Made by a program: the position numbers and the translations under genes. From Polyangia bacterium (lineage in GTDB: Bacteria; Myxococcota_A; Polyangia; JAAYKL01): 64,000 nt of DNA. The stretch's first letter is position 1; each line of letters begins with the position of its first letter. A model generated the notes under the pieces. That model saw only the letters and a list, made by a program, of their open reading frames with translations, was not told where the DNA came from and ran no database searches. This document shows positions 8,058 through 50,480 of the stretch, piece by piece. The DNA lies in contig JBNKCR010000017.1 in NCBI GenBank assembly GCA_050287845.1, positions 18,186-82,185 of the forward strand, written 5' to 3'.

Positions 8058-9146
8058 TCACGCGGTGGTGAATTCGAAACCACCATCGGTCACCGTGAAA
8101 TCCCTTCGGTGACCATTAATATGAATGTAATCCCGGTGGGTGGTCGTAATGAATACCTGCCCCCCCATTCCCTGTAAAAATTCAAACAGATGCCGATTCC
8201 GTTTCTGGTCCAGTTCACTGGAGACATCGTCAAAAAGCAACAGGGGAATTTTTCCGGTACTCTCTGTGAGCGCCCTGGTTTCCGCAATCTTAGCCGCCAG
8301 CACCAGGGTTCGCTGCTGCCCCTGTGACCCGAACTTCTTCGCTTCTTTGCCGTTCAGGGAAAAAAACACATCGTCACTCTGGGGTCCACCGGTGGTGTAT
8401 TTCCGCGCACAATCCCGGGAAAATCGTGCATCAAGGGCTTTTAAAAAGGCTTCTTCATCGCCTTCGATTTTGGGCTGGTACTGCAAATCCGCCACGCCCC
8501 CATTGCTGATTTCTTTTACGGCGTCCGAAAAGAAAGGTCGCATGGAATCAATGAATGCCGCACGCAACCGGACAATTCGAGAACCGATTTGGGCGAGCTG
8601 CAAATCAAACGGCACCAGAGACCGTCGGTCCGGGGGGCCATCTTTGAGAATGCGATTCCGGTTGGCAATCACCCGGGCGTAGGTTTTGAACAGCGATGGA
8701 TATGTCGCATCCGCCTGAAACATGGCCCTATCGATAAATCGCCTTCTGGCATCGGGACTTCCCTGAACCAGTTCCATCACCTGGGGATGAAACAGCACCA
8801 TGGGCAACATCTGAAAATGACGACCGGATGCACTGATACGCTTTCCGTCCACTGAAACCGTGCGACTCGTTTCTGAAATATCGACTTCACAGGAAAGCCC
8901 GGCATGCAGCGATCCGAACCTCCCCCGGACTCTGGATTTCAATTCATCGTGATGAATCAGCTCGCTTCTTTTTGCCGTGCGGAATGAACGCAGCGCCCCC
9001 AGCAGATACACCGCTTCAACAAGATTGGTCTTCCCCATACCGTTGTGGCCGGAAATCACGTTAAACCGCTCACCCGGCTGAATTACTGCCTTCTTAATAT
9101 TCCGGAAGTGGATGACTGACAATTCATCCAGCTGAACGCGATCCAT
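8058..9146 (-). CDS. recF: DNA replication and repair protein RecF
   Basis: 'FRNIKKAVIQPGERFNVISGHNGMGKTNLVEA' is the RecF N-terminal Walker A. The protein is 362 aa and sits immediately downstream of dnaN. Confidence 0.9.
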   Translation of the reverse strand: MDRVQLDELSVIHFRNIKKAVIQPGERFNVISGHNGMGKTNLVEAVYLLGALRSFRTAKRSELIHHDELKSRVRGRFGSLHAGLSCEVDISETSRTVSVDGKRISASGRHFQMLPMVLFHPQVMELVQGSPDARRRFIDRAMFQADATYPSLFKTYARVIANRNRILKDGPPDRRSLVPFDLQLAQIGSRIVRLRAAFIDSMRPFFSDAVKEISNGGVADLQYQPKIEGDEEAFLKALDARFSRDCARKYTTGGPQSDDVFFSLNGKEAKKFGSQGQQRTLVLAAKIAETRALTESTGKIPLLLFDDVSSELDQKRNRHLFEFLQGMGGQVFITTTHRDYIHINGHRRDFTVTDGGFEFTTA

Positions 9147-9163
9147 CAGGGTACTCGTTTACA

Positions 9164-10306
9164 TCAGATACGCATGGGCATGACCACGCCCACAAAGGTA
9201 TCATCCAGATCCTTGACCACCGCCGGATCCAGATATCCCGCCAGCTCCAGAACCACTTCCTCGTCTCCAAGAACGTTGAGGACATCAATGAAGTATTTGG
9301 CGTTGAAGCCAATTTCCATGGCCTCGCCATCGTAATTGACATCCACTATCTCCGACCCTTCGCCAATAGATGGATTGTCCGTTGAAATTTCCACCGCGCC
9401 CTCGGTCAGCTGAAACTTGACGCCCAGGGTCCGATCGGAAGACACCACGGAAACGCGCTTGAGCGCATCCAGAATTTTTCCGCGCGATACAATGATACGC
9501 TTGTCCTGTCCCTTGGGAATCACCTGTTCGTACGGGGGAAACTCTGATTCAATCAGCTTGGAAACCAGGATGAATTCTGCTTTTTTAGCCGGCTCGTCGT
9601 CCACGGCCTTTTCGGCTTCCACATCTCGCTTGATAAAAACCGAACCATCCCGCGAACCGATGAGAACCATGTCATCGCCATCATCGAGCATTCGTTTGAT
9701 TTCACCGATGCCCTTGTTGGGAATCACCATGGAAAAATTATAAAACCCGCTCTGGTCGCTTTTCAGCTCAATTTTGGACAGTCGGTGTCCATCAGTGGTG
9801 ACCATGCGAAGCAGCTTTCCATCTCCCTGAAACAGTGCACCATTGATGTGGGGTCTGGTTTCGTCACTGGAAATGGAAAACGATGTTTTATCGATCATAT
9901 CGGCCAACATCCCCGGATCCACTTCAAAGAATTCCACATCCCCGGGTTGCGGCATACTGGGAAAATCATCCGCCGGGAGTCCAAGCAGCTTGAAATTGGA
10001 ACGCCCGCAACTGATTTCCACTGCATCGCCATCGGCTTTCAGACGAATCATTCCGTCCGGCATGGACCGAACGATATCATAAAGAGTTTTAGCCGGCAGT
10101 GTGATCTCGCCCTGCTGTTTCACATCCGCGGGAAATACACCGCTTGCGGACAGATTCAAATCCGTTGCCGCGAACTGCACATTTCCGTTCGGTTCAGTTG
10201 ATATGAGCACATTAGAAAGAATCTGCATCGAACTTTTTCTATCTGAAATGCTACTGGTACGAGCCAATGCGGATGCGAAACATTGCTTGGAGAGAACTAT
10301 TTCCAT
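9164..10306 (-). CDS. dnaN: DNA polymerase III beta subunit (sliding clamp)
   Basis: About 380 aa with beta-clamp topology and N-terminus 'MEIVLSKQ...LSNVLIS...ATDL'. An alternative upstream start is at 10327. Confidence 0.9.
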   Translation of the reverse strand: MEIVLSKQCFASALARTSSISDRKSSMQILSNVLISTEPNGNVQFAATDLNLSASGVFPADVKQQGEITLPAKTLYDIVRSMPDGMIRLKADGDAVEISCGRSNFKLLGLPADDFPSMPQPGDVEFFEVDPGMLADMIDKTSFSISSDETRPHINGALFQGDGKLLRMVTTDGHRLSKIELKSDQSGFYNFSMVIPNKGIGEIKRMLDDGDDMVLIGSRDGSVFIKRDVEAEKAVDDEPAKKAEFILVSKLIESEFPPYEQVIPKGQDKRIIVSRGKILDALKRVSVVSSDRTLGVKFQLTEGAVEISTDNPSIGEGSEIVDVNYDGEAMEIGFNAKYFIDVLNVLGDEEVVLELAGYLDPAVVKDLDDTFVGVVMPMRI

Positions 10307-10329
10307 TGAGATCATTCCTTTGTTCAATA

Positions 10330-10709
10330 AAAATTATCAAAAAAACAAATCATTGTTTTTTTCAATTTAACAATTACTGATAACAATAATTAATCGACTA
10401 TCATATAGAGTTTAAAAAATTGGTAAATGACTGTTTACAATTTTCTTAATTTTCACCCAAGGCCTTATTTCTTATCTTTATTATTTTTTTAAAACAAGTA
10501 GTCGTAGGTGGTGTGAATATGTGGATAAGTATAAATTATTTAATATTTTCAAACAACTATACACATTGAAAACTGTGGATGGTTTCTGTGGAAACAGGGA
10601 TTCAAACCGGTTTGCTGAAAATAGCAGAAGTTATTCACACTTTATTCATGGGTTGTTTCACAGAACAGTCACAGTTAACCCCAGTTTATTTAGAGGTTAA
10701 CCCCAGGCA
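10330..10709. other. candidate replication origin (oriC): AT-rich block plus DnaA-box-like sites between divergent dnaN and uvrB
   Basis: A perfect TGTGGATAA lies at about 10519-10527. One-to-two-mismatch boxes include TTATTCACA, TGTGGATGG and TGTGGAAAC. 10330-10500 is a long A/T-rich stretch. Flanking gene orientations diverge. Confidence 0.4.
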
Positions 10710-12737
10710 GTGAATATGGAATTTGAGAAATTCAGAATGCAGTCTCCTTTTGAACCCCGGGGCGATCAGCCACGCGCCATTCAACAGCTGGTGGACGGCC
10801 TGGAATCGGGCATCGCCCATCAGGTATTGCTGGGAATCACCGGTTCCGGGAAAACGTTCACCATGGCTTCGGTAATCGATCGATGCCATCGGCCTACCCT
10901 GGTGCTCGCCCACAACAAAACCCTTGCTGCTCAGCTGTACGCGGAGTTCAAGTCGCTTTTTCCGGATAACGCGGTGGAATACTTCGTGAGTTATTACGAT
11001 TATTATCAGCCCGAGGCGTATGTCCCTACAACTAATACATTTATAGAGAAAGATGCATCCATGAATGAGCAACTGGACCGGATGCGTCATGCGGCCACCC
11101 GGTCGCTATTGACCCGCCGCGATGTGATTGTTGTCTCGTCAGTCTCCTGCATCTACGGAATCGGCGCCCGGGAAGACTATACTCGCATGATGATCACCCT
11201 TCAGGAAAACGAAGCGGTTGGACGGGATGCGTTGCTGCGTTCACTCGTGGATATTCAATACAATCGGAACGATACCGATTTTTCGCGAGGGACTTTTCGG
11301 GTCCGGGGCGATACGGTGGAAGTTTTTCCGGTGTATGAAGACGAAAAAGCGGTTCGACTGGAATTCTGGGGGGATACCATCGACCGTATCAGCGAAATCG
11401 ATCCGCTGCGGGGCACCGTACTTCGAAATATACCCAAAGTATCTATTTTTCCAGGCACCCACTATGTGCTTCCCGAAGATAAAATGGCCCAGGCACTGGA
11501 TAGCATTCGCAGTGAACTGCAGGTACGGCTGCAGGAGCTGGACGCCGCCGGCAAACTCATTGAAAAACAGAGACTCGAGGAGCGAACCATGTATGACCTG
11601 GAAATGCTTCAGGAAACAGGGCACTGTTCGGGGATTGAAAATTACTCCAGGCACATGGACGGCCGGAATGAAGGCGAGCCGGCGACCACCCTCATCGATT
11701 ACTTCCCCGACGACTTTCTGATGTTCATTGACGAAAGTCATCAGACGGTGGCCCAGGTGGGGGCCATGTATAAAGGCGATCGTTCCCGCAAAGAAACCCT
11801 GGTTAATTATGGATTTCGATTGCCATCAGCCCTCGACAACCGGCCGCTCCGGTTTCACGAGTTCGAACAGAAGGTGTCTCAAGTGATTTATGTGTCCGCC
11901 ACGCCGGCAAATTACGAGCTCGAAAAGGCGCAGGGGGAGGTGGTGGAGCAGGTGATTCGGCCTACCGGATTGCTGGATCCCGTGGTGGAAGTGCGGCCGG
12001 CGAAAACCCAGGTCGATGACCTGCTCGAAGAAATCCGGCAGCGGGTGGAGCGGGGACACCGGATACTTGTAACCACACTCACCAAGCGGATGGCGGAGGA
12101 ATTAACCGAGTACTACACAGAAGTTGGCGTCCGGGTGCGTTACATGCATTCGGATATTGATACAGTGGAGCGGGTGGAAATCCTTCGGGAGTTGCGCGCC
12201 GGCACCTTTGATGTGCTGGTGGGAATTAATCTGCTTCGGGAAGGGTTGGATATTCCTGAAGTATCGCTGGTTGGAATTCTCGATGCGGACAAGGAGGGAT
12301 TTCTCCGGTCTACCCGATCACTGATTCAGACCATAGGTCGCGCGGCCCGGAATCTGGATGGCAAAGTCATTATGTATGGGGACACGGTGACCAAATCCAT
12401 GAACGAAGCCATCACCATCACCGAAGAAAGGCGGCAGCGGCAGGAGGCCTACAACGCGGCCAATGGAATAACCCCGCAGAGTGTCCAAAAGGCCATTTCC
12501 GAGGTGGGACCCGGAGCGGCAACCGCCGATTATGCCCCTGTGTCCCGAAGACCGGATAAGGCGGAACTGCAGGGGGACCCGACTGCCATGATTGAGGCGC
12601 TGAGAGAAGAAATGCTCACTGCGGCAGCGGCGTTGGAATTCGAAAAGGCAGCGGCGATTCGGGATGAAATCGAGGCAATTGCCCAAAGCCATGGGGTAAA
12701 AGTCACCGCCGGTAAACGGCGGAAGAGACGGCGATAG
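10710..12737 (+). CDS. uvrB: excinuclease ABC subunit B
   Basis: Motifs '[11 protein letters not shown]', '[10 protein letters not shown]', the [10 protein letters not shown] beta-hairpin, and a C-terminal UvrB/UvrC interaction domain. Confidence 0.95.
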
Positions 12738-12759
12738 GGCAGATGGTCAGCGGTTGACA

Positions 12760-12797
12760 AATAAAAAAACCCTTAAGTGATAAATACTTAAGGGTTT
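12760..12797 (-). terminator. rho-independent terminator hairpin (12-bp arms AAACCCTTAAGT / ACTTAAGGGTTT, 7-nt loop) followed by a U-run on the minus strand
   Basis: It is directly 3' of tRNA-Phe on the minus strand. The A6 run at 12761-12766 gives a U-tract in the minus transcript. It may also serve uvrB on the + strand. Confidence 0.6.
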
Positions 12798-12798
12798 G

Positions 12799-12872
12799 TG
12801 CCCAGACGCGGAATCGAACCACGGACACGGGGATTTTCAATCCCCTGCTCTACCGACTGAGCTATCTGGGCG
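12799..12872 (-). tRNA. tRNA-Phe (anticodon GAA), CCA not encoded
   Basis: The reverse complement folds as acceptor GCCCAGA/TCTGGGC, a D-arm GCTC-AGTCGGTA-GAGC, an anticodon stem GGGGA/TCCCC with loop TTGAAAA, and a T-arm CGTGG-TTCGATT-CCGCG. Confidence 0.9.
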
Positions 12873-40528: not shown

Positions 40529-40695
40529 AGCGGCGATCGGTTGATTTACCTGGGAGACAACTTCCGTTTGTCTTTCATTTCCACCTGCGTTGCCATTGCC
40601 GAACAGGTCAATCCGCGTTGAACCATATGCCTCTACGTCTTCTGATTCCTCAGTTTTTGTTGACGGCTTCGTTTGCGGGCATCTGACCTGGCTTC

Positions 40696-40975
40696 GAGAT
40701 TCGTAACCCTTTTTTTTCATTTGAAGCCGCCTATATGGATTGAAATGATATACAAATACACTGCCGACGGTTAGTATCGGGCATTCATGATTTTATAAGT
40801 GAGTATTCGTAACGGGAGTTTGCGATTAAGGAACCGGCGAAATACGTGCTGTGTGTTGGCATCCGAAAAAGCGAGCGTAAAATAAATTCGAAACACGAAT
40901 TAGCGCGTATAACGCGTATAGAAGTAAACATAGTACGTATAGAATTGGAAAAAACGAGCGTAAAACGAGCGTAAC
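40696..40975. repeat. cluster of short direct repeats upstream of hsdR (GAGCGTAAAA x3, CGCGTATA x2, ACGTATAGA x2, ATTCGTAAC x2)
   Basis: Read directly in the sequence. It is the left boundary of the R-M block, with a T9 run at about 40703-40711. Confidence 0.45.
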
Positions 40976-41005
40976 CTGGCACCGTTCTTTACACCGGGAG
41001 AAGCA

Positions 41006-43828
41006 ATGGAAAAGATTCCATATTCAGAAGCGGAAACCCGTCAGCAGCTTATTGATAAATCCCTGGCGCTGGCCGGGTGGAACGTGAACGATCCCTCTCA
41101 GGTAATACAGGAACTTGACATCTATATAGAGAACGTGGCCGTATCAAAAGTGGCCGACCCTTCCACGCCGTACCGGGGGCATAACTTCGCAGACTATGCG
41201 CTGATGATGGAAGGGAAACCCATCGCGGTTATTGAAGCCAAAAGAACATCCAAAGATGCACGGGCCGGGCAGGAGCAGGCGCTGCAATATGCGCAGAAGC
41301 TGCAACAGATTCATGGCGTTCTGATGCCGTTTGTGTTTTACACTAACGGATACGAAACATTTTTTTGGGAAGTGGACTTTTACCCGCCGGTGAGAGTGTA
41401 TGGCTTTCCAACATTTAAAGACCTTCACTGGATGGACGAACGGCGTAAAAGCCGCAATCCCATGTCGGTTGAAATGATCAACCAGAATATTTCCGGCCGA
41501 GGGTATCAGCTGGAAGCCATCCGCTCTGTTCTTGAGAGTATTGAAAAAAAGCGAAGAGATTTTTTACTGGTCATGGCCACCGGTACCGGAAAAACCCGTA
41601 CCGCCATGGGAATGCTTGATGTGATTATTCGTGCCCACTGGGCCAAACGGGTATTGTTTCTGGTGGATCGCATTGCCCTTGGAGATCAGGCGCTGGATGC
41701 ATTCAGGGAACACATTCCCGCCGCGCCATCGTGGCCGCAAAAAAACGAACGGGATTTCACACCAAACCGCCGCGTTTATGTAACCACCTACCCAACAATG
41801 CTGAACCTGATTGAAAAGGGCACTACGCCACAGGATTGGATTTCGCCGTTCTTTTTCGATGTCATCGTGGCAGATGAGTCCCACCGAAGCATTTACAACA
41901 CCTACAAACAGGTGCTCGACTATTTTAACGCTATTCGGATAGGACTCACCGCAACGCCCACAAACCACATTGACCACGACACGTTTAAACTCTTTGACTG
42001 CGATTCCCACGACCCCACGTTTGCGTATACTTTCGAGGAAGCCCTGGCACATGATCCGCCATATCTGACAGACTTCGAAGTGTTGAAAGTGCGCTCCAAG
42101 TTTCAGCTGGAAGGCATTAAGGGCGGTGTGTTGCCTCCACAGGTGCAGCGTAAGCTGGTGGCAGAGGGCAAAGATATTGAAGAGATTGATTTTGAAGGCT
42201 CCGACTTGGAACGCAAGGTGACCAACTCAGGCACCAACGCGCTGATTGTTCGGGAGTTCATGGAAGAATGCATTAAGGACGAGTCGGGATCGCTGCCTGG
42301 CAAATCCATTATCTTTGCCATTTCCATGGCTCACGCCCGACGAATTCAGGAGCTGTTCGACCGAATGTATCCGGAGCACAAAGGCCAATTGGCGCGGGTG
42401 ATTGTGTCTCAGGAAAAATTTGTACACAGCAAAGGCGGTCTGCTCGACCAGTTCAAAAATCAGGATATGCCCCGGGTAGCCATCTCGGTGGACATGCTGG
42501 ATACGGGGGTGGATGTTCGAGAGATTGTAAATCTGGTGTTTGCCAAGCCGGTGTATTCGTATGTGAAGTTCTGGCAAATGATTGGTCGAGGCACCCGAGT
42601 ACTTGATGACGACCCCGCCAAACGCAAACCATGGTGTCGCCATAAAGACAAGTTCCTTATCATTGATTGCTGGTCAAATTTTGAGTTTTTCAAGATGCAG
42701 CCCGAGGGAAAAGAGCCAGGGGCGCAAACCCCAATGGCGGTAAAGCTGTTCACCAAACGGCTTGATAAGCTGGAAGCCGCCTTTGCTGTTGAACGCACCG
42801 ATGTGGTGGAAGCCGTTGTCAGCGATTTGAAAGCAGACCTTGCCACGCTGCCACAAAATAATGTGGTTGTAAGCGAAGCGCGCAAGGAACTCTCCAGAGT
42901 ACGCGACGACCAATTTTGGACAACGTTGTCACCATCGGATCTGGGATTCCTAAGAAACAACGTGGCCCCGGTGTTGCGCGCGCGGCCGGGAATCGATATT
43001 AAAGCCATGCGCTTTGAAACCGAAGCGGTGGAACTGGGCACCGCGCTGCTTGCGGAAAACGCAGACCAGGTCACCGCCATTCGCGACAGTCTTATCGCGC
43101 AAATTGACGAACTGCCCCTTTCTGTGAATGTGGTGGTCAGAGAAAAAGAGCTGATTGAACAGACTAAAGAAACTGCCTTCTGGGCAACGCCAACCGAAGA
43201 CAAAATCCGCTCATTGGTCAGCGCGCTGTCGCCACTGATGAGATTCCGCCAGCGAAAAACCGAATCGTTCATGACGCTGGATATTGAAGACCTCACAGTG
43301 GTGAAAGACTGGATTGAGTTCGGTCCCGAAAACGAGCGGATGTCCACCCGTGCGTACAGGGAAAGAGTTGAGCAGTATGTGCGCGATTTGGTGGAACAGA
43401 ATCCGGTGGTGGCCAAAATCGCCAATGGTGAAGAAGTAGGCGAAACCGAAATCATGGCCCTGGCGCGCACTCTGAAAGACCACGACCCCCAAGTCACCGA
43501 AGAGTTACTGCGTAAAGTATACGATCACAAAACTGCCCGCTTCATCCAGTTCATCAAACACATCCTCGGCCTCGAAAAACTGGAATCCTGGCAGGAATCC
43601 GTAAACCACAAATTCGAAGCGTTCATCGCCGAACACAATACGTTTACTGCACTGCAAATCCGCTTTTTGCAGACCCTGAAAACGTTCATTCTGCAAACCG
43701 GAAAAGTAGAAAGAAAAGACCTGATAGCAGCGCCGTTTACCCAGATTCATCCCAGTGGCGTGCGCGGTGTTTTCAATGCTGGGGAGATTGAAGAAATCCT
43801 GAATTTCTCCAGCGGATTTGTAGCGTAA
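41006..43828 (+). CDS. hsdR: Type I restriction enzyme R subunit
   Basis: N-terminal 'SEAETRQQLIDKSL' (HsdR_N type). PD-(D/E)xK-like 'DYAL...IAVIEAKR'. Helicase motif I 'MATGTGKT' and motif II 'VADESH'. 940 aa. Confidence 0.8.
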   Translation: MEKIPYSEAETRQQLIDKSLALAGWNVNDPSQVIQELDIYIENVAVSKVADPSTPYRGHNFADYALMMEGKPIAVIEAKRTSKDARAGQEQALQYAQKLQQIHGVLMPFVFYTNGYETFFWEVDFYPPVRVYGFPTFKDLHWMDERRKSRNPMSVEMINQNISGRGYQLEAIRSVLESIEKKRRDFLLVMATGTGKTRTAMGMLDVIIRAHWAKRVLFLVDRIALGDQALDAFREHIPAAPSWPQKNERDFTPNRRVYVTTYPTMLNLIEKGTTPQDWISPFFFDVIVADESHRSIYNTYKQVLDYFNAIRIGLTATPTNHIDHDTFKLFDCDSHDPTFAYTFEEALAHDPPYLTDFEVLKVRSKFQLEGIKGGVLPPQVQRKLVAEGKDIEEIDFEGSDLERKVTNSGTNALIVREFMEECIKDESGSLPGKSIIFAISMAHARRIQELFDRMYPEHKGQLARVIVSQEKFVHSKGGLLDQFKNQDMPRVAISVDMLDTGVDVREIVNLVFAKPVYSYVKFWQMIGRGTRVLDDDPAKRKPWCRHKDKFLIIDCWSNFEFFKMQPEGKEPGAQTPMAVKLFTKRLDKLEAAFAVERTDVVEAVVSDLKADLATLPQNNVVVSEARKELSRVRDDQFWTTLSPSDLGFLRNNVAPVLRARPGIDIKAMRFETEAVELGTALLAENADQVTAIRDSLIAQIDELPLSVNVVVREKELIEQTKETAFWATPTEDKIRSLVSALSPLMRFRQRKTESFMTLDIEDLTVVKDWIEFGPENERMSTRAYRERVEQYVRDLVEQNPVVAKIANGEEVGETEIMALARTLKDHDPQVTEELLRKVYDHKTARFIQFIKHILGLEKLESWQESVNHKFEAFIAEHNTFTALQIRFLQTLKTFILQTGKVERKDLIAAPFTQIHPSGVRGVFNAGEIEEILNFSSGFVA

Positions 43829-43885
43829 GAATAAGTCTCTTTCTTTCCGACGATTGTTCATTTTTAAAACATGGAACGATTTAAT

Positions 43886-43920
43886 AAACATGGTAATAAC
43901 CAGTTGATATTACCATGTTT
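43886..43920 (+). promoter_or_regulatory. perfect 13-bp inverted repeat (AAACATGGTAATA-N9-TATTACCATGTTT) whose right arm contains the fic start codon
   Basis: Arms at 43886-43898 and 43908-43920. The fic ATG is at 43915-43917, inside the right arm. Confidence 0.5.
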
Positions 43921-45009
43921 AACGAGTACATTACCACTATTCAAAAGGTGGAAAAATTGAACTCGATTGACTATAAAATATTGAAATCATTAGTTTTAAG
44001 TGTGGAACAGGCGTCGGCGATGCGGGCGATTGGGGAGTACAAGGGTCGGCAGGAGCTGTATACCCGGCAGACACCCGAAGTGCTGGAGTCCCTGAAAGAG
44101 GTTGCCGTTATTGAATCCACGGAGTCGTCCAATCGGCTGGAGGGGATTGAAGCGCCTCACCAGCGGGTAGAGGCCATTGTAAAAAAGAGCACCCAGCCCA
44201 GGGACCGCTCTGAGCAGGAAATCGCCGGGTATCAGGATGCGCTGGCCATGATTCATGAATCGGCCCAGTACATGCCATTTAGCCCCAATGTGATTCAGCA
44301 GCTTCACTCCACCATTTATCGGTACCACGTTAGCGATGGCGGCAAGTGGAAGCCCACTGACAATTCCATTGTGGAAAAGGATAGTGCGGGAAATATCACC
44401 CGCGTGCGGTTTGAAACGGTAAGCGCGGTGGAAACCCCTGGCGCAATGGAGCGACTTGGAAGCCTGTACAAAACAGCGTCGGAAAGTCACGACCTGGAAG
44501 CGCTGATACTGGTGCCGCTCACGGTGCTCGATTTTTTGTGCATTCACCCGTTTAGAGATGGCAATGGCCGAGTGGGTCGGCTGATTACGTTAATGCTTTT
44601 GTATCAGCATGGTTTCGAAGTGGGCCGGTACATCAGCCTGGAGCGCATCATCGAGGAATCGAAAGAATCGTACTACCGCACTCTCGAAAAGAGTTCTATC
44701 GGCTGGCACAAAGCAGAGCACGATCCCATGCCTTGGCTGGAGTATTTTTGGGGGATGCTGATAAAGGCCTACAAAGAATTTGAAGACCGCGTGGGAAATG
44801 TGCGCACCGGTAAGGGTTCAAAAACAGATCACGTGCGCGAAGCGGTGAGCAGGCGTATGCGCCCCTTTGCCATCTCGGAAATAGTAGTGGATTGCCCCGG
44901 GGTGAGCATGGACATGATTCGAATTGTACTGCGCAAAATGAGAGATGAAGGATTGCTTATCCAGGAGGGTACCGGTCGCGGTGCCAAGTGGATAAGGAAG
45001 ATGGATTGA
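43915..45009 (+). CDS. fic: Fic family protein, class II (intramolecular inhibitory motif)
   Basis: Fic motif 'HPFRDGNGRVGR'. N-terminal inhibitory [S/T]xxxE[G/N] motif 'SNRLEG'. C-terminal winged-helix-like segment. Confidence 0.85.
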   Translation: MFNEYITTIQKVEKLNSIDYKILKSLVLSVEQASAMRAIGEYKGRQELYTRQTPEVLESLKEVAVIESTESSNRLEGIEAPHQRVEAIVKKSTQPRDRSEQEIAGYQDALAMIHESAQYMPFSPNVIQQLHSTIYRYHVSDGGKWKPTDNSIVEKDSAGNITRVRFETVSAVETPGAMERLGSLYKTASESHDLEALILVPLTVLDFLCIHPFRDGNGRVGRLITLMLLYQHGFEVGRYISLERIIEESKESYYRTLEKSSIGWHKAEHDPMPWLEYFWGMLIKAYKEFEDRVGNVRTGKGSKTDHVREAVSRRMRPFAISEIVVDCPGVSMDMIRIVLRKMRDEGLLIQEGTGRGAKWIRKMD

Positions 45010-45029
45010 AATCAATAGGAAACCCCTGA

Positions 45030-46553
45030 ATGCTGACACAAACACTCAAATCAAAAATAGACTCCCTCTGGGACAAATTCTGGTCGGGGGGTATCGCCAA
45101 TCCGTTGACTGTGATGGAACAAATCTCCTACCTGCTCTTTATGCACAGGCTGGATGCGGCCGATTTGAAACGCAAAGCAGATGCGGAATGGCTGGGTGAA
45201 AAGTACACTTCGGTATTTGAAGGCAACGAAGAGTGCCGCTGGTCACGGTTTCGGCATAAGCCACCGGAAGAGATGCTCACCCATGTGCAAAACGACGTGT
45301 TTCCGTTTATTAAAAACATGAAAAACGGCGGGCAGCGCTTTTCGCATCACATGAAAGATGCGGTGTTCATTATTCCCAAGCCGTCGCTGCTTGCCGAGGC
45401 GGTTGATGTCATCGATGAGATTTATGCTGAAATTGAGCGGGAGCGTTCCGAGCAGGGGCAAAGCTTTCACGACACCCAGGGCGACCTGTACGAATATTTG
45501 CTTTCGGAGATATCATCCGCCGGTAAAAACGGGCAGTTTCGCACCCCCAGGCACATTATTCAAATGATGTGTCATCTGGTAAACCCCAAACTGGGTGAGA
45601 CCATTTGCGACCCCGCATGCGGCACGGGCGGCTTTTTGCTGGGCGCGTTTCAACATATACTCACTCAACACACCAGCGACAAGCTGCGCTGGCAGGACGA
45701 AAACAGCATGACCAAGGGCCCGGCAGGCGACAAGCTGACGGACCAGCGCCAGTGGGAGGTGCTGCGCAACAAAACATTTTATGGCTACGATTTTGACAGC
45801 ACCATGGTGCGCATCGGCATCATGAACCTGATGCTGCACGGCGTGGATAGCCCCAATCTGGATTACAAAGATACCCTTTCTAAAAGATACGATGAGCAGG
45901 AATGCTACGACGTATGCCTGGCCAATCCGCCGTTCAAGGGCAGCATTGACAAAGGCGACATCAACGAAGCACTGGCTTTAAAAACAACTAAAATAGAGCT
46001 GTTGTTTGTCAACCGCATCATCAATCTGCTGCGCATCGGCGGCAGGTCGGCCGTCATTGTGCCCGACGGCGTGCTCTTTGGTTCAAGCAAGGCCCACAAG
46101 GATTTGCGCAAAATGCTCATTGAAACCTGCGAGCTGCAGGGTGTAGTGTCTATGCCGTCGGGGGTGTTCAAGCCATACGCAGGTGTATCCACGGGGGTGC
46201 TGGTATTTGTAAAAGGCGGCGAAACCGAAAACGTGTGGTTCTACGACATGCAGGCTGACGGCCGTTCCCTGGATGATAAGCGCGATAAAATCGACCAGAA
46301 CGATATTCCCGACATCACCCAAAAATGGGCCAAACGGGATCCCAAAAAAGATACCGACCGCACAAAGAAAGCCTTCTTCGTGCCAGTGCAGGACATCATC
46401 GACAACAACTACGATCTGTCCATTAACCGGTACAAAGAAATCGAATACGAAGAAGTGGAATACGAGCCGCCCAAAGAGATTTTGAAAAAGCTACGCGCTT
46501 TGGAAAAAGAAATATCAAGCGACCTTGATGAGCTGGAGAAGATGTTGGGATGA
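45030..46553 (+). CDS. hsdM: Type I restriction-modification system methyltransferase subunit
   Basis: N6-MTase motifs 'DPACGTGGFLL' (AdoMet) and 'LANPPFKG' (NPPF). 507 aa. Confidence 0.9.
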   Translation: MLTQTLKSKIDSLWDKFWSGGIANPLTVMEQISYLLFMHRLDAADLKRKADAEWLGEKYTSVFEGNEECRWSRFRHKPPEEMLTHVQNDVFPFIKNMKNGGQRFSHHMKDAVFIIPKPSLLAEAVDVIDEIYAEIERERSEQGQSFHDTQGDLYEYLLSEISSAGKNGQFRTPRHIIQMMCHLVNPKLGETICDPACGTGGFLLGAFQHILTQHTSDKLRWQDENSMTKGPAGDKLTDQRQWEVLRNKTFYGYDFDSTMVRIGIMNLMLHGVDSPNLDYKDTLSKRYDEQECYDVCLANPPFKGSIDKGDINEALALKTTKIELLFVNRIINLLRIGGRSAVIVPDGVLFGSSKAHKDLRKMLIETCELQGVVSMPSGVFKPYAGVSTGVLVFVKGGETENVWFYDMQADGRSLDDKRDKIDQNDIPDITQKWAKRDPKKDTDRTKKAFFVPVQDIIDNNYDLSINRYKEIEYEEVEYEPPKEILKKLRALEKEISSDLDELEKMLG

Positions 46554-47731
46554 GTTTTCCATCACCTGGACATTGGGAAGAGGTTCAATTTGACCAAGTT
46601 GCGCAGGTCATCACGGGCTGTACACCGTCGACTAAATCGACTTCGTACTACGGTGGTGACATTCCGTTCATCGGCCCTGCTGATCTAGGAACAATGACGC
46701 CCATCTGTTCCAGCGCAAAGATGCTTACTCAGGCTGGGGCTGAGAAGGCACGAATGCTGCCGGTCGGAGCGGTATTAGTCTGTTGCATTGGAGCCACAAT
46801 CGGGAAAGTTGGAATAACCGGTACTCGCTTGGCTACAAATCAGCAAATAAATGCACTCATCTTTGATGAGGATCGAGTCGTTCCCCGCTATGGGCTCCAT
46901 TTCTGCCGAACTATAGAATTTGTGTTTCGCCATTTAAGTTCGTCTACGACATTACCTTTGCTACCGAAAAGTCGCTTCGCAGAAGTAAAGATCCCTCTCC
47001 CCCCACTTGCCGAACAAAAACGCATTGCCGCCATTCTCGACAAAGCCGACGCCATTCGCAAAAAGCGCAAACAGGCCATTGAACTGACAGAACAACTCCT
47101 GCGCGCCACATTCCTGGAAATGTTTGGGGACCCGGTGACGAACCCGAAGGGGTGGGATGTGGTGGAGCTATCAAAACTTGCAATAAAAATAACAGATGGA
47201 ACCCACAAAACCCCAAAATACACGGCATCTGGAATGCGATTCATAAGTGCGAAAAACATACGATCCAACGGTATTGACTGGAGCGATATCAAATATATCA
47301 CGCCCGAAGAGCACGCAGAGTTATATAAAAGATGTAATCCGCAACGAGAAGATATCGTTTTGTCAAAAAGTGGCTCGATTGGCACTGCAGTGAAAATTGA
47401 CGTTGATTTTGAATTTAGTCTATTCGAAAGCGCAGCTCTAATTAAACTCAAACCCAATTCCATATCAGCAGATTTTTTAACTGCATTGTTGAACACGGAT
47501 GGTTTTCGGCGATTGTATATACGAAGTACGAAGGGAGTTGCTGTAAAACATCTCCACCTAAATGAAATTCGCTCTTTGCCTATCATTATTCCATCACTCA
47601 ATATTCAAAAGTGTTTCGAGGATGTGTCGCAGCGGCTTGCTCATTTATCTAATAAACTTCATACAATTTGTCTCACAACAGAAGCCAATTTTTTGAGTCT
47701 CCAACAAAGGGCTTTCGCAGGTCGCATTTAA
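46550..47731 (+). CDS. hsdS: Type I restriction-modification system specificity subunit
   Basis: Two target-recognition halves separated by the conserved 'LPPLAEQKRIAAILDKADAIRKKRKQ' helix. ATGA overlap with hsdM. Lower GC than hsdR/hsdM. Confidence 0.8.
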   Translation: MSFPSPGHWEEVQFDQVAQVITGCTPSTKSTSYYGGDIPFIGPADLGTMTPICSSAKMLTQAGAEKARMLPVGAVLVCCIGATIGKVGITGTRLATNQQINALIFDEDRVVPRYGLHFCRTIEFVFRHLSSSTTLPLLPKSRFAEVKIPLPPLAEQKRIAAILDKADAIRKKRKQAIELTEQLLRATFLEMFGDPVTNPKGWDVVELSKLAIKITDGTHKTPKYTASGMRFISAKNIRSNGIDWSDIKYITPEEHAELYKRCNPQREDIVLSKSGSIGTAVKIDVDFEFSLFESAALIKLKPNSISADFLTALLNTDGFRRLYIRSTKGVAVKHLHLNEIRSLPIIIPSLNIQKCFEDVSQRLAHLSNKLHTICLTTEANFLSLQQRAFAGRI

Positions 47732-47751
47732 AATAAAAAACGAGGACAGCA

Positions 47752-48942
47752 ATGGGAATGGTCAAAAACGAATGGATGGAAGCTCAAGAGCGTGGATACT
47801 GCGATCTGGAAGGAGATGTATGTATTCATTGTATGGATGATGAAGACCTCCGCGTTTTGCATAGGGAACATCAAACAGGTTTAGGCACCTGTGAGTTCTG
47901 TGAAAAAGAAAATGTTGAAGTAGCTCCAGCCGAAGTGATTCAGGAACGAATAATGAACACGCTTGGCAAATATTATGTTGATATCCAATACTCCGGTTCC
48001 CCTTATATTTCAAGGGAAGGTGGTTGGCTTATCTCTAACGATGACGCGTCAACGATCGTTGACAATTATTTAGCCTGCAATGTTAGTGACGAATTTTGTA
48101 ACGCTGTTGTCAACGCCACCATGGACGAATTGTGGTGTGAATCGAATTGGGACATACTGTCTCCCCTGAAGAAGTTGAAATACGGATGGGAAGAATTTCG
48201 CCATATAGTGAAACATGTTCAGCGATTTTCTTTTGCATGGTCAAACGATGGAGAAGAAGTGTGGCATCCTGACCATACCAATCCGCGCGTGACCCTGGAG
48301 AGGGTCGGCGAACTCGTCAAGAAATACAAATTGCTGAAGACAGTTCCTGCAGGTACACAAATTTGTCGTGTTCGTGTCGATAAAAATACCTTTTACTCTT
48401 CGATGCCCGACATTGGAGTACCACCATCAAGTGCATCAAACGCCAGCAGAATGAGCCCCGCTGGAATCTCCATGTTTTATGGCGCAGTCGATTTTGAAAC
48501 TGCAATAAAGGAAACATGGGATGAACAGAATACCGCTCACTGTTCAATGGGATTATTCCGTTTAAAAAAGAACATTAGCGTGGTTGATTACAGCAGTATC
48601 CCCGTAGTACCGGGTTTCTGGAGTGACATCGAACGCCAAAAAAGAGAAGAAATATTGTTTCTTCACCAGCTGGCCGATGATTTTTCCAAACCTATTAGTC
48701 GAGGGGCGAAAGTAGATCTGGAGTATGCACCTACCCAAATCGTCGCAGAGTTTTTAATGAAATCTCCTTTTTTACAAACTGACAGGACGAACCCAATAAC
48801 GGGCCTACTTTTCAGTAGCAGCAAAACCGGAAAACAAAATTTCGTGCTAAACCTTGTGCATTCAACAGATTCAAAGCTCGGGAATAAGCAGGACGACTTT
48901 CTGGATCTCATTCAAGTGTCTACGAAAGTGCTGATACCATAG
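47752..48942 (+). CDS. zinc-ribbon-like N-terminal domain fused to a RES-like domain (candidate NAD+-targeting toxin/effector), 20 bp downstream of hsdS
   Basis: N-terminal 'CIHC...CEFC' in a treble-clef arrangement. The C-terminal half has 'SRMSPAGISMFYGAVDFETAIKE', resembling the RES core (R-x-N/S-P...Y-x-A...E). Low GC. Confidence 0.5.
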   Translation: MGMVKNEWMEAQERGYCDLEGDVCIHCMDDEDLRVLHREHQTGLGTCEFCEKENVEVAPAEVIQERIMNTLGKYYVDIQYSGSPYISREGGWLISNDDASTIVDNYLACNVSDEFCNAVVNATMDELWCESNWDILSPLKKLKYGWEEFRHIVKHVQRFSFAWSNDGEEVWHPDHTNPRVTLERVGELVKKYKLLKTVPAGTQICRVRVDKNTFYSSMPDIGVPPSSASNASRMSPAGISMFYGAVDFETAIKETWDEQNTAHCSMGLFRLKKNISVVDYSSIPVVPGFWSDIERQKREEILFLHQLADDFSKPISRGAKVDLEYAPTQIVAEFLMKSPFLQTDRTNPITGLLFSSSKTGKQNFVLNLVHSTDSKLGNKQDDFLDLIQVSTKVLIP

Positions 48943-48977
48943 GTGTATTCAGGTTCGCATCATCTGTAACAGTTATT

Positions 48978-49976
48978 CTATTTCAGTCCGCACCGCTCCC
49001 GCAACCTCTCAAACAGATCGGCGCTGATGAATCCAGCCTGCTTTTGCTCCAGCAAAGAATTCATGGTTTTCCGTTGTGATGGAGTCTCCGACATAGTCAC
49101 TGGTGCCGTCCGCGTTTGGAACTCTATCACCGTCTGCTCTTTGTCGTCGGGAACCGCTGACACACTCAACTTAGGCAAAATCTCCTTTCTCGCCGTATGC
49201 CACCGTTCCTCTTTAATAAGACTCCCCCACCTGGCGCACCAGTAGTTCCAGTTAATCCCCGTCGGCACTGTCCCTGGAATTCTGTTTTCAAACAGCTCAT
49301 ATCGCGCTCGGCTCAGCTGTGCTTTCCTCTCATGGCCTTTTTGAGCCAGCAAATATGCCAGGGTGTTAAAAATCATCTGCTTGATGTCCAGGCGTGTTGG
49401 TGGGCGGAGTGGGGTTGTGAATGGGATAGGTGCTAACTGTTCCGCGCCCGTTCGAGACGCTTCGCTCCTCAGGACAGCGGAACCTTTCGATGCTTTAACG
49501 ATGGGACGTGTCGAAAATCCCTGTGGTCCCTTTGCCAAAGGGACATGTGCTGGTTGTTTTTCTTTGCTGGGGCCTGCTGAGTGCGTTTCTTTTTGCTGTG
49601 ATTTTGATTTGTCGATAGTTGGGACACCAGTTCGATTCCCGGTTTGGGAATCCAATTGCTTTTTGGCGTCATGCTTCGCAACTACCCGTTTATCAACATC
49701 GTTTCGCGTGCGCTCGGTACTCTGATTAAAAGAATCAGGTATCTTAGGTTTGTCAGTGCGACTTTTTGTCGTGGGTATACAAGTGTGGGTGTTCCCCTTT
49801 GGAATGCTCCAGATGTTCAATGCTTTTTCGGTCAATGTGCAGCTGCAAATCTGTTCGCATTTGTGGTTGTCTGGCCCCGGCTGGATGATGCGCTCCAGGT
49901 CTGCTGGTAAGATTGTTGAAAATTGGTTTGAAATCGTTTCACAATGGAATATGATGAACGAATCCGATGTGGTCAT
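48978..49976 (-). CDS. hypothetical protein: disordered Lys/Ser/Thr/Pro-rich N-terminal half, globular C-terminal about 130 aa of unknown family
   Basis: 332-aa ORF convergent with the RES-like gene. No motif recognised. It lies in low-GC DNA. Confidence 0.35.
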   Translation of the reverse strand: MTTSDSFIIFHCETISNQFSTILPADLERIIQPGPDNHKCEQICSCTLTEKALNIWSIPKGNTHTCIPTTKSRTDKPKIPDSFNQSTERTRNDVDKRVVAKHDAKKQLDSQTGNRTGVPTIDKSKSQQKETHSAGPSKEKQPAHVPLAKGPQGFSTRPIVKASKGSAVLRSEASRTGAEQLAPIPFTTPLRPPTRLDIKQMIFNTLAYLLAQKGHERKAQLSRARYELFENRIPGTVPTGINWNYWCARWGSLIKEERWHTARKEILPKLSVSAVPDDKEQTVIEFQTRTAPVTMSETPSQRKTMNSLLEQKQAGFISADLFERLRERCGLK

Positions 49977-50037
49977 ATGGTTTCAGAACCCCCGGATGTT
50001 GCAGCGGAAAATTTATTGAACCGCGAAGGAAAACATT

Positions 50038-50057
50038 GTGCAACCGGTTGCACTTTT
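50038..50057 (+). terminator. perfect 16-bp palindrome GTGCAACCGGTTGCAC followed by TTTT (terminator-like on + strand, or operator upstream of the minus-strand 332-aa gene)
   Basis: Read directly. It sits 60 bp upstream of the 49976 start codon of the minus-strand ORF. Confidence 0.35.
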
Positions 50058-50480
50058 CAGGAAAAAACAGCCTGATTCTTGTTTTTACTATTAATTTCAA
50101 CGATTTAAACAATCTGATAAAAAATTCAAAATACGATACAGTATCGGTTGAATCTCAATTGAGGCGAATTTTGAGGTGTGTTTCCGTGACGGTTCCCGCC
50201 CCATTCACGGACTCCTCAGGGTACTCGCCTTCCCGGGGATGAGTGCGGTTTGCAAATCATGTCTGTTTCCTGATAACCACCTTTGTCTCGTGATATTTTC
50301 GGGAAAATTTTATCGGTGCCTGGTGGGCAACTGATGGATGTGTATGCAGTTTTCCTTTTATTGTGGGCCCTTTTTCTTTTTTTTTTTATCACTGGATAAA
50401 ATCAATGCGCTGTTGTGATTTTTCATTTACAGTGTTTCCGGTGAAATTTTGTTTCGTTTTATGAAAGGGTAAATTGCCCC

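Follow-up and report, generated by a model that had tools for sequence, protein, structure and literature searches.

A Type I restriction-modification operon with class II Fic and aRES genes: a predicted layered antiphage locus in a Myxococcota-type genome

Introduction

Defence genes embedded in the operons of Type I restriction-modification (R-M) systems are an established pattern, as exemplified by PrrC, an ATPase-HEPN anticodon nuclease that occurs almost only with Type I R-M and has a demonstrated physical link to it. Among RES-domain proteins, fusions to the HEPN/RES-NTD1 module, 'some with a further N-terminal Zn ribbon', were listed in 2013 (Anantharaman et al., Biol Direct 8:15, PMC3710099), and the family was named aRES in 2026 (Osterman et al., bioRxiv 10.64898/2026.01.28.702374). 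According to the latter description, aRES proteins are detected by a length of 300-600 aa together with Pfam RES and PF18870, provide single-gene defence in E. coli, deplete NAD+ and yield ADPR-1''-P as product. Their genes are termed 'not operonically associated', and no trigger is named, even for the tested proteins (bioRxiv 10.64898/2026.01.28.702374).

Here, we describe a locus in a window of 64,000 nucleotides, the whole stretch of DNA that was analysed, from a Myxococcota-type genome. It is an intact Type I R-M operon that additionally encodes two predicted abortive-infection effectors of the single-gene kind, one being a Fic AMPylase and the other an NAD+-degrading RES protein of the aRES type. 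As both effector families have been described already, the locus is a tidy, fairly ordinary defence island and not a new kind of system. We consider it likely that it represents a layered antiphage locus inside a strain-variable hotspot, in which a conserved core is combined with a variable accessory slot and a self-acting aRES protein.

Results

Organization of the locus

All six ORFs of a preliminary description of this DNA are present where it had placed them, with the first five co-oriented and separated by short gaps (Table 1). The intervals between hsdR, fic, hsdM, hsdS and the aRES gene are 86, 20, -4 and 20 bp, the hsdM/hsdS overlap being ATGA at 46550-46553 as read directly, and a further 35 bp lead to the convergent ORF. 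The identities proposed for the five co-oriented genes (R, Fic, M, S and RES-like) are borne out by Pfam and PADLOC searches.

Table 1. Coordinates of the features of the locus within the window
Feature	Position	Strand	Description
Left end of strain-variable insert and hsdR upstream region	40545..41005	+	Similarity to sister genome L088 stops at 40544
hsdR	41006..43828	+	Type I restriction subunit, 940 aa; Pfam and PADLOC
Fic gene	43915..45009	+	Class II Fic AMPylase, 364 aa, SoFic-like; between hsdR and hsdM
hsdM	45030..46553	+	Type I methyltransferase subunit, 507 aa; Pfam and PADLOC
hsdS	46550..47731	+	Specificity subunit, 393 aa, two target-recognition domains
aRES gene	47752..48942	+	396 aa; CxxC...CxxC (Zn-ribbon-like), HEPN/RES-NTD1, RES (ADP-ribosyltransferase-fold)
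332-aa ORF	48978..49976	-	Function not assigned; convergent to aRES gene

The R-M core and the Fic protein

HsdR carries the N-terminal nuclease region and SF2 helicase motor of a Type I enzyme (Pfam HSDR_N, ResIII, Helicase_C and EcoEI_R_C; PADLOC REase_I, 1.1e-160). It is most similar to the EcoAI/EcoEI type, with a match to NCBIfam restrict_EcoAI (3e-75) that lies under the curated cut-off, and appears intact because its relatives measure 933-954 aa; the lengths of the R-M genes agree with those of relatives. The other Type I hallmarks, an N6-adenine methyltransferase (HsdM: Pfam HsdM_N and N6_Mtase, 4.6e-60; PADLOC MTase_I, 8.3e-187) and an adjacent specificity subunit with two target-recognition domains (HsdS: Pfam Methylase_S in two stretches; PADLOC Specificity_I, 8.9e-76), are encoded next to each other.

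Under the definition reportedly given by Engel and co-workers in 2012, a class II Fic protein bears its inhibitory (S/T)xxxE(G/N) motif within the one polypeptide, on the N-terminal side of the Fic core. The protein encoded between hsdR and hsdM (Pfam Fic, 2.3e-12; PADLOC SoFic, 3e-37, almost full length) has SNRLEG at residues 72-77, N-terminal to the core, and the active site HPFRDGNGRVGR at residues 211-222 (HPFRDGNGR at 211), which conforms to HxFx(D/E)GNGRxxR. As the inhibitory motif precedes the active-site motif in one chain, the earlier assignment to class II was correct. Since it scores 54 bits where NCBIfam ProtAdlyltaseSoFic requires 550, the protein is SoFic-like and not a SoFic equivalog. 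No small AS1-like gene follows the Fic gene, the next gene being hsdM after 20 bp.

Among the 80 closest relatives of the present hsdM, Fic lies between hsdR and hsdM in 7, with 2 further partial cases, and the orthologues are 47-60% identical. These loci show hsdR-fic-hsdM-hsdS to be a conserved core that has been passed on as one module within this lineage of Type I R-M systems. The slot after hsdS is occupied in these relatives by AAA_15/AAA_21 ATPases, Abi_2, Abi_C, TIR_2, HNH_5, RAMA and others, but never by aRES, which was also not found within 8 kb of any of the 80. The position 3' of hsdS is thus a variable accessory slot.

The 396-aa protein as a member of the aRES family

The preliminary description had recognized an N-terminal CxxC...CxxC module and a RES-like core in the 396-aa protein, and both were recovered. 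The cysteine pairs are CIHC (residue 24) and CEFC (residue 47), and two domains score above their Pfam gathering cut-offs in hmmscan, namely HEPN_RES_NTD1 (PF18870; residues 44-163, 1.9e-24, 86.9 bits against 27.4) and RES (PF08808; residues 222-367, 6.6e-10, 39.7 bits against 23.2). By the published rule, applied here with hmmscan in place of the hhsearch used by its authors, and reading the PF00808 of the preprint as a misprint of PF08808, the protein classifies as a member of the aRES family. R233, E254 and S356, invariant across 61 homologues, form the R/E/S triad on a RES/ADP-ribosyltransferase fold; the ORF is intact, and all family-invariant residues are present. The fold was assigned through fold comparison, in which ParT is the second-best structural match, as a sequence profile search of the PDB was insufficient: it returned no RES structure and only marginal Zn-ribbon-like DnaI matches (E 0.017). 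PADLOC v2.0.0 and NCBIfam contain no matching model.

A scan of species genomes with the single protein as query yielded no relatives, and these were recovered by an alignment-based scan instead. Phage genomes are nearly devoid of the family, with 2 partial matches. The 227 plasmid records matched would be too high as a family count, since in only 67 of them does the match span 80% or more of the protein; the other matches are shorter and, among those listed, mostly confined to the RES domain. Identity to the full-length enterobacterial plasmid relatives is only ~23-25%, and the tested aRES genes come from the same enterobacterial genera as those relatives. They encode the E. coli, Klebsiella and Enterobacter proteins, the only ones for which phage protection and an NAD+ loss set off by infection, with nicotinamide and ADPR-1''-P as products, are known.

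Consistent with the earlier view, no Xre- or antitoxin-like gene adjoins the aRES gene, as hsdS lies upstream and the convergent downstream ORF has neither HTH nor DUF2384. Co-transcription with hsdS, which the preliminary description had also put forward, is very probable given the 20-bp gap, the GAGGA preceding the ATG and a scan for terminators between the two genes that found none.

Genomic neighbourhood of aRES genes

It had been suggested that the RES fusion is a fixed partner of hsdS, but this does not hold. An aRES gene lies directly 3' of a Type I gene in only 5 of 87 loci (hsdS in two, hsdR in two and hsdM in one), while the other 82 have no adjacent Type I gene; moreover, where R-M-linked copies were open to comparison, they proved not to be mutual nearest relatives and are scattered among non-R-M ones. 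Across the 87 loci the neighbours vary, including Gabija, GmrSD, McrA-like, Mrr, PvuRts1I, AbiH, TIR, ParE/RelB, and Type I and Type III-like R-M genes. They are mostly defence genes with no conserved partner or antitoxin among them, the pattern of a single-gene system. A conserved upstream partner of ~255-287 aa was considered and rejected, as the genes in question are unrelated (Ymh-type HEPN, UPF0489, PvuRts1I-like and HTH-YozE). One locus (L028) has its own combination of Fic, hsdR, hsdS, aRES, Abi_C and hsdM, and another (L033) shows decay in the form of split genes, which the present locus does not resemble. These comparisons show several independent captures of aRES into Type I hsd operons.

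The 332-aa ORF, base composition and flanks

The convergent ORF exists as previously reported, 35 bp from the aRES gene, but it probably does not belong to the cassette and instead represents an older gene of this site. Its N-terminal ~180 aa are predicted to be disordered, and its true start is uncertain; a helical domain, conserved and rich in Trp, spans the C-terminal ~140 aa, and the structure model is confident in the C-terminal third only. A word-indexed protein search returned only the protein itself, and an exhaustive HMMER search 29 weak relatives. Across 25 homologues, Pfam gave only 3 weak HTH_36 matches.

The drop in GC that had been reported from hsdS onward applies to two genes, hsdS (GC 0.453, GC3 0.421) and the aRES gene (GC 0.436, GC3 0.428), and the GC3 break falls exactly at the hsdM/hsdS junction. 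It does not extend to the 332-aa ORF (GC3 0.54), which, like hsdR, fic and hsdM (GC3 0.58-0.65), is in line with the window (mean GC 0.514); the hem operon (0.56-0.60), against which the drop had been judged, is the upper end of the window and not its background.

In the left flank, the 13-mer AAARCGAGCGTAA occurs three times (40868, 40951 and 40962), a number reached in 0 of 100 shuffles. It was considered as a conserved operator upstream of hsdR and rejected, being absent from related R-M loci. A promoter-like site at 40856-40883, also upstream of hsdR, agrees with 10 of 12 consensus positions. The right flank contains palindromes and T-runs. These elements had led to the block being called repeat-flanked; however, the longest sequence common to the two flanks is a T-rich 10-mer and no att-like or terminal repeats were found at the ends of the island, so the block is not repeat-flanked in the sense of a mobile element. 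Integrase and transposase genes are absent from the block, as stated before, and so are tRNA and Rfam families; an integrative mobile element was rejected for want of an integrase, a transposase, flanking direct repeats and a tRNA target. At the same site, between an alpha-2-macroglobulin gene and the sigma-54 activator/hem operon, the sister genome harbours other cargo, including IS110 and Y1 transposases, and this comparison indicates a strain-variable hotspot.

Discussion

In the layered locus proposed here, the R-M enzyme would methylate host DNA and cut unmethylated incoming DNA. The class II, SoFic-like AMPylase is most likely an abortive-infection toxin, which would be restrained up to the time of infection by the inhibitory SxxxEG helix in its own N-terminal part. 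The aRES gene is probably read as part of the hsd transcript, and its protein would act on its own, the Zn-ribbon/NTD1 half serving as a putative sensor under which the RES domain presumably stays inactive before some phage cue is received. The RES domain would then phosphorolyse NAD+ to nicotinamide and ADP-ribose-1''-phosphate, and the loss of NAD+ would arrest the infected cell, thereby starving the phage. The enzyme chemistry, trigger and phenotype assumed here are drawn by analogy from characterised aRES, RES and SoFic proteins.

A different role was implied by the preliminary description, in which the RES-like protein was seen as an R-M-coupled effector in the manner of PrrC and RloC. 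In a guard of this kind, the Type I R-M complex would bind and restrain aRES, and a phage anti-restriction protein that disables the enzyme would free NAD+ destruction as a dedicated second line. PrrC provides a precedent (PMC3710099), the published work names no aRES trigger, and the 20-bp gap 3' of hsdS contains a ribosome-binding site; a Type I gene stands immediately 5' of aRES in 5 of the 87 loci, the nearest homologue included, and L028 has independently united the same kinds of genes. However, the upstream gene varies among hsdS, hsdM and hsdR, as would be expected of operon hitch-hiking more than of a specific contact with one subunit, and the 82 loci with no adjacent Type I gene, the complete lack of aRES among the 80 close relatives of the present R-M system and the dispersal of R-M-linked copies among non-R-M relatives all weigh in the same direction. 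Because tested aRES proteins protect E. coli as stand-alone genes (bioRxiv 10.64898/2026.01.28.702374), R-M coupling is not needed, and we judge the guard to be unlikely. Since 20 bp separate the present copy from hsdS, and 5 bp its nearest homologue from an hsdM, some functional R-M coupling in this clade is possible. That a subset of lineages, including these two, has recruited aRES as an R-M-guarded effector triggered by the state of the restriction complex, for example its inhibition by a phage anti-restriction protein, nevertheless seems quite improbable.

Self-acting NAD+ phosphorolysis, as preferred here, can also be questioned on the side of chemistry. RES chemistry is not uniform, as ParT ADP-ribosylates Prs, which counts against the NAD+ phosphorylase reading, and ParT ranks high among the structural matches. 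An RES domain acting as a protein ADP-ribosyltransferase, in the way of ParT on Prs, would still be an abortive-infection effector; we think this very unlikely. The least probable reading, to which we give scarcely any credence, regards the gene as a post-segregational killing or addiction element stabilising the island, or as a passenger in decay that no longer has a role. In its favour, type II toxins classically include RES domains, full-length relatives occur in about 67 plasmid records, and the GC3 of the gene is foreign. Against this, an unneutralised constitutive toxin would be lethal and there is no antitoxin gene, while the integrity of the ORF and the retention of every family-invariant residue set the locus apart from the split genes of L033.

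The locus is a clean natural case of modular defence stacking, in which an R-M/Fic core is followed by a swappable slot after hsdS. It extends the range of aRES to a Myxococcota-type genome, and the repeated independent capture of aRES into Type I hsd operons that is seen here was not part of the family's first description. The practical value is modest and consists of candidates for testing the R-M dependence of operonic aRES and the aRES trigger; if the guarded reading were true, the locus would be the equivalent of PrrC-EcoprrI with NAD+ depletion as its output, and a natural setting in which to look for that trigger.

Comparison with known systems

The preliminary description had left open whether this arrangement was already known. 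As regards the protein, the NTD1-RES architecture has been known since 2013 (PMC3710099), and the layout of Zn ribbon, NTD1 and RES matches that of Anantharaman et al. 2013 exactly; there, RES fusions were presented without function or context, and RES was viewed as a possible RNase. The present gene resembles the published aRES in the combination of PF18870 and RES, in its length within 300-600 aa, in the R/E/S triad and in its place in a defence island next to R-M genes with no antitoxin or conserved partner. It differs in its origin from a Myxococcota-type MAG, in being known from sequence, in its low identity to enterobacterial plasmid relatives, and in lying just 3' of hsdS, whereas published examples are described as non-operonic.

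Xre-RES type II toxin-antitoxin systems (MbcTA, Xre-RES of P. putida, NatRT and ParST) have toxins of 144-250 aa and an Xre/COG5642 (DUF2384) antitoxin gene, of which the present locus has none. Its 396-aa protein instead bears a fused N-terminal Zn-ribbon/NTD1 half in place of a separate antitoxin, and on the basis of this length and of both neighbouring genes an Xre-RES identity was rejected. The Fic protein shares with SoFic and other class II Fic proteins the near-full-length PADLOC match, HPFx[D/E]GNGRxxR and the N-terminal SxxxEG; it departs from SoFic in falling far under the NCBIfam cut-off and in the embedding of its gene in an hsd operon.

A PrrC/RloC-type anticodon nuclease was likewise rejected, as the aRES protein contains NTD1 and RES but no ABC-type ATPase or HEPN RNase domain, so the resemblance to PrrC is positional only. 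The two differ in fold and target, and aRES is mostly located elsewhere. In its position, an abortive-infection-type effector encoded inside a Type I hsd operon or as its last gene, the locus is like PrrC-EcoprrI and TgvAB (V. cholerae VPI-2), and its aRES gene is like embedded R-M cargo generally (Payne et al. 2024) in being one of many alternative genes at that place.

Organization of the block

All six open reading frames (ORFs) named in the preliminary description, which was made from the sequence alone, are present (table). The first five are separated by 86, 20, -4 and 20 bp, with the ATGA at 46550–46553 forming the hsdM/hsdS overlap. Together, Pfam and PADLOC models identify a complete Type I restriction-modification (R-M) system, for which the closest NCBIfam match of HsdR is the EcoAI family, under the curated cut-off.

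Features of the block
Feature	Position	Orientation	Matches or remarks
Promoter-like site	40856–40883		left flank
13-mer AAARCGAGCGTAA	40868–40880, 40951–40963, 40962–40974		three copies just upstream of hsdR
hsdR	41006–43828	co-oriented with the next four genes	HSDR_N, ResIII, EcoEI_R_C (Pfam); REase_I, 1e-160 (PADLOC)
Fic gene	43915–45009	as hsdR	SoFic, 3e-37 (PADLOC)
hsdM	45030–46553	as hsdR	HsdM_N, N6_Mtase (Pfam); MTase_I, 8e-187 (PADLOC)
hsdS	46550–47731	as hsdR	two Methylase_S stretches
396-aa gene (aRES)	47752–48942	as hsdR	HEPN_RES_NTD1, RES (Pfam)
332-aa ORF	48978–49976	convergent (minus)	

The SoFic model covers nearly the full length of the Fic protein, which is assigned to the class II arrangement by HPFRDGNGRVGR at 211 and SNRLEG at 72. 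The alignment with the Fic orthologues of related loci, which are 350–356 aa long, starts at residue 15 of the window protein, and therefore the annotated start, the ATG at 43915, may not be the true one (window 43915–43960).

The 396-aa protein

Both domains of the 396-aa protein, HEPN_RES_NTD1 (residues 44–163, 1.9e-24) and RES (residues 222–367, 6.6e-10), score above the Pfam gathering score. The protein collection contains 73 homologues, and tblastn confirmed 444 matches in the collection with one genome per species. Across 61 aligned homologues, C24, C47, C50, R233, E254 and S356 are invariant and residue 27 is Cys (53 sequences) or His (eight), which gives a predicted CxxC/H...CxxC metal site followed by an R-E-S triad. 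AlphaFold2 gave a confident model (pLDDT 92.8, pTM 0.89), for which ParT is the top Foldseek match.

HEPN/RES-NTD1 (PF18870) was defined by Anantharaman et al. 2013 (PMC3710099), who described NTD1-RES fusions, some with “a further N-terminal Zn ribbon”. The name aRES was given by Osterman et al. (bioRxiv, January 2026) to stand-alone RES proteins in defence islands beside R-M, TA and Abi genes, with homologues in ~4% of genomes. Three enterobacterial aRES protected E. coli, with growth arrest and NAD+ depletion, and the products of the tested proteins were nicotinamide and ADPR-1''-phosphate. Because the detection rule of that study (300–600 aa and both Pfam domains, RES and PF18870) also describes the window protein, we file it, on sequence grounds, as an aRES member.

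Genomic site and composition

In a sister genome (L088), whose sigma-54 activator is 98% identical and whose DNA is 88–91% identical to the window, similarity runs to 40544 and resumes at 49882, such that window 40545–49881 corresponds to L088 2033–9403, with different cargo between flanks of ~90% DNA identity. The L088 cargo comprises a Y1 transposase, an IS110 transposase, a weak DUF4411 gene, DUF1214, a sulfotransferase and a short-chain dehydrogenase. The site lies between a 2019-aa alpha-2-macroglobulin gene and the sigma-54 activator/hem operon. More distant relatives also hold other genes upstream of the activator, and by these comparisons the site is a strain-variable hotspot. Orthologues of the activator carry the labels Deltaproteobacteria, Polyangia or Myxococcota MAG. 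Within the block no integrase or transposase was found, as had been described, nor any tRNA or Rfam family; the reported flanking by repeats was not borne out in the sense of a mobile element, as the flanks share no repeat and terminal repeats are absent.

The GC of the window is 0.514. GC3 is 0.58–0.65 in hsdR, fic and hsdM, like the surroundings, and the lowest values in the window are those of hsdS (0.421) and aRES (0.428). This break, at the hsdM/hsdS junction, would fit a history in which the target-recognition regions of hsdS and the tail gene were exchanged, possibly at the same time. The GC drop reported from hsdS onward thus holds for these two genes but not for the 332-aa ORF, which is host-like (0.54).

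Three occurrences of AAARCGAGCGTAA were reached in 0/100 shuffles, and the 13-mer is absent from the rest of the window and from 80 related R-M loci. One copy overlaps the -10 element of the promoter-like site, and the 13-mer may be an operator; the block is without a regulator gene.

The 332-aa ORF, counted as a block member in the preliminary description, has no family match in Pfam, PADLOC or NCBIfam, no significant structural match, and only 29 weak homologues, mostly across residues 180–330; its model has a confident helical C-terminal domain and an N-terminal half predicted to be disordered. Its first 31 codons fall in the flank common to L088, and its final ~23 codons lie in a 70-bp match of 83% identity (window 48983–49052, L088 5238–5306, minus strand of L088, AKQAGFISDDLFERLRERC). 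With both ends shared and host-like GC3, it is interpreted as an older gene of this locus, with an uncertain true length, rather than as part of the block, which would therefore place the R-M/aRES insert at ~40545–48982. In L088 the gene appears disrupted. The match there overlaps the 3' end of the plus-strand ORF called as weak DUF4411, a call that may be spurious.

An inherited core and a variable slot

Across 80 metagenome loci with HsdM 54–77% identical to that of the window, seven, plus two partial contigs, carry Fic between hsdR and hsdM. As these Fic proteins are 47–60% identical to the window protein, hsdR-fic-hsdM-hsdS is, by sequence comparison, an inherited core. A co-oriented gene closely follows hsdS in 21 of the 80 loci and differs in kind almost every time (AAA_15/AAA_21 ATPases, DUF4357, Abi_2, Abi_C, RAMA, HNH_5, TIR_2, GIY-YIG), so the position is judged a variable accessory slot. 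A search with an HMM of the 61 aligned homologues detected aRES within 8 kb of the related hsdM in 0/80 loci. Several post-hsdS proteins are without a Pfam match and may be candidate defence genes.

Neighbourhoods of aRES

The preliminary description had proposed the RES fusion as a fixed partner of hsdS, a proposal that the contexts of aRES contradict. In 87 loci (80 genome loci, six metagenomic homologues and the window), no neighbour is conserved across lineages, and the genes beside aRES are mostly other defence genes: Gabija (L063; with Mrr in L002), GmrSD (L038, P0003), a McrA-like gene and integrase (P0010), ParE/RelB and an AAA-subtilase pair (P0007), a PLD-ResIII enzyme (L060), a Type III-like SNF2/methylase/ResIII set (L081), and PvuRts1I-like, Ymh-HEPN, GIY-YIG with AbiH, and TIR-Mrr genes. 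A co-oriented Type I gene stands immediately 5' of aRES (≤30 bp) in five loci, and the subunit varies: hsdS in the window and L028, hsdR in L011 and L033, and hsdM in L173/L174, which holds the nearest homologue (47.6% identical). The aRES of the window, L011, L028 and L081 are only 28–34% identical to one another, and the closest relatives of each are in non-R-M contexts. The varying subunit and these relatives point to repeated, independent capture of aRES into hsd operons, with no dedicated partnership.

Several of these loci have features of their own. L028 (4704–14815; Gammaproteobacteria MAG, OZ244979.1) is an independently assembled composite in the order Fic-hsdR-hsdS-aRES-DUF6161-Abi_C-hsdM, its proteins only 27–35% identical to their window counterparts. 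L033 (5643–11260; Dehalococcoidia MAG) is a decayed form of the association, in which a DDE transposase adjoins an N-terminally truncated hsdR split in two, followed by a likewise split aRES frame. In Bacteroidota (L022, L023, L026, L027, L035 and others; ~8100–12800), aRES, a 191-aa GIY-YIG protein after a 0-bp gap and AbiH form a conserved multi-gene cassette, whose occurrence in Flavobacterium, Chryseobacterium, Sphingobacterium and Dysgonomonas suggests a mobile element. Large proteins of 518–1113 aa without a Pfam match adjoin aRES in several loci (L014 6570–9911 (-), L058 2443–5661 (-), L013 9069–10625); in L013 a TIR-Mrr fusion protein lies two genes away.

Proposed mechanism and relation to known systems

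We consider it likely that the operon provides three layers of defence. The R-M enzyme would restrict unmethylated DNA; Fic, by analogy with the antiphage protein SoFic, would be a self-inhibited AMPylase acting in abortive infection; and aRES, co-transcribed with the operon yet autonomous, would be an infection-triggered NAD+ phosphorylase with its N-terminal half as sensor, its trigger and chemistry being modelled on characterised relatives. The main rival is that aRES guards the R-M complex, as the anticodon nuclease PrrC does. Although the recurrent operonic attachment of aRES to Type I genes speaks for such a guard, the subunit upstream changes, R-M-linked copies are scattered in the phylogeny, relatives of the window R-M system lack aRES, and tested aRES proteins are active as stand-alone genes, all of which make this reading improbable. 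The observation of the preliminary description is confirmed, and its interpretation only partly supported.

The locus belongs to known kinds, a Type I R-M system with embedded Fic plus aRES; occasional capture of aRES into hsd operons is a minor new point. The variable slot behind hsdS matches the published pattern of “embedded defence genes” in Type I R-M systems.
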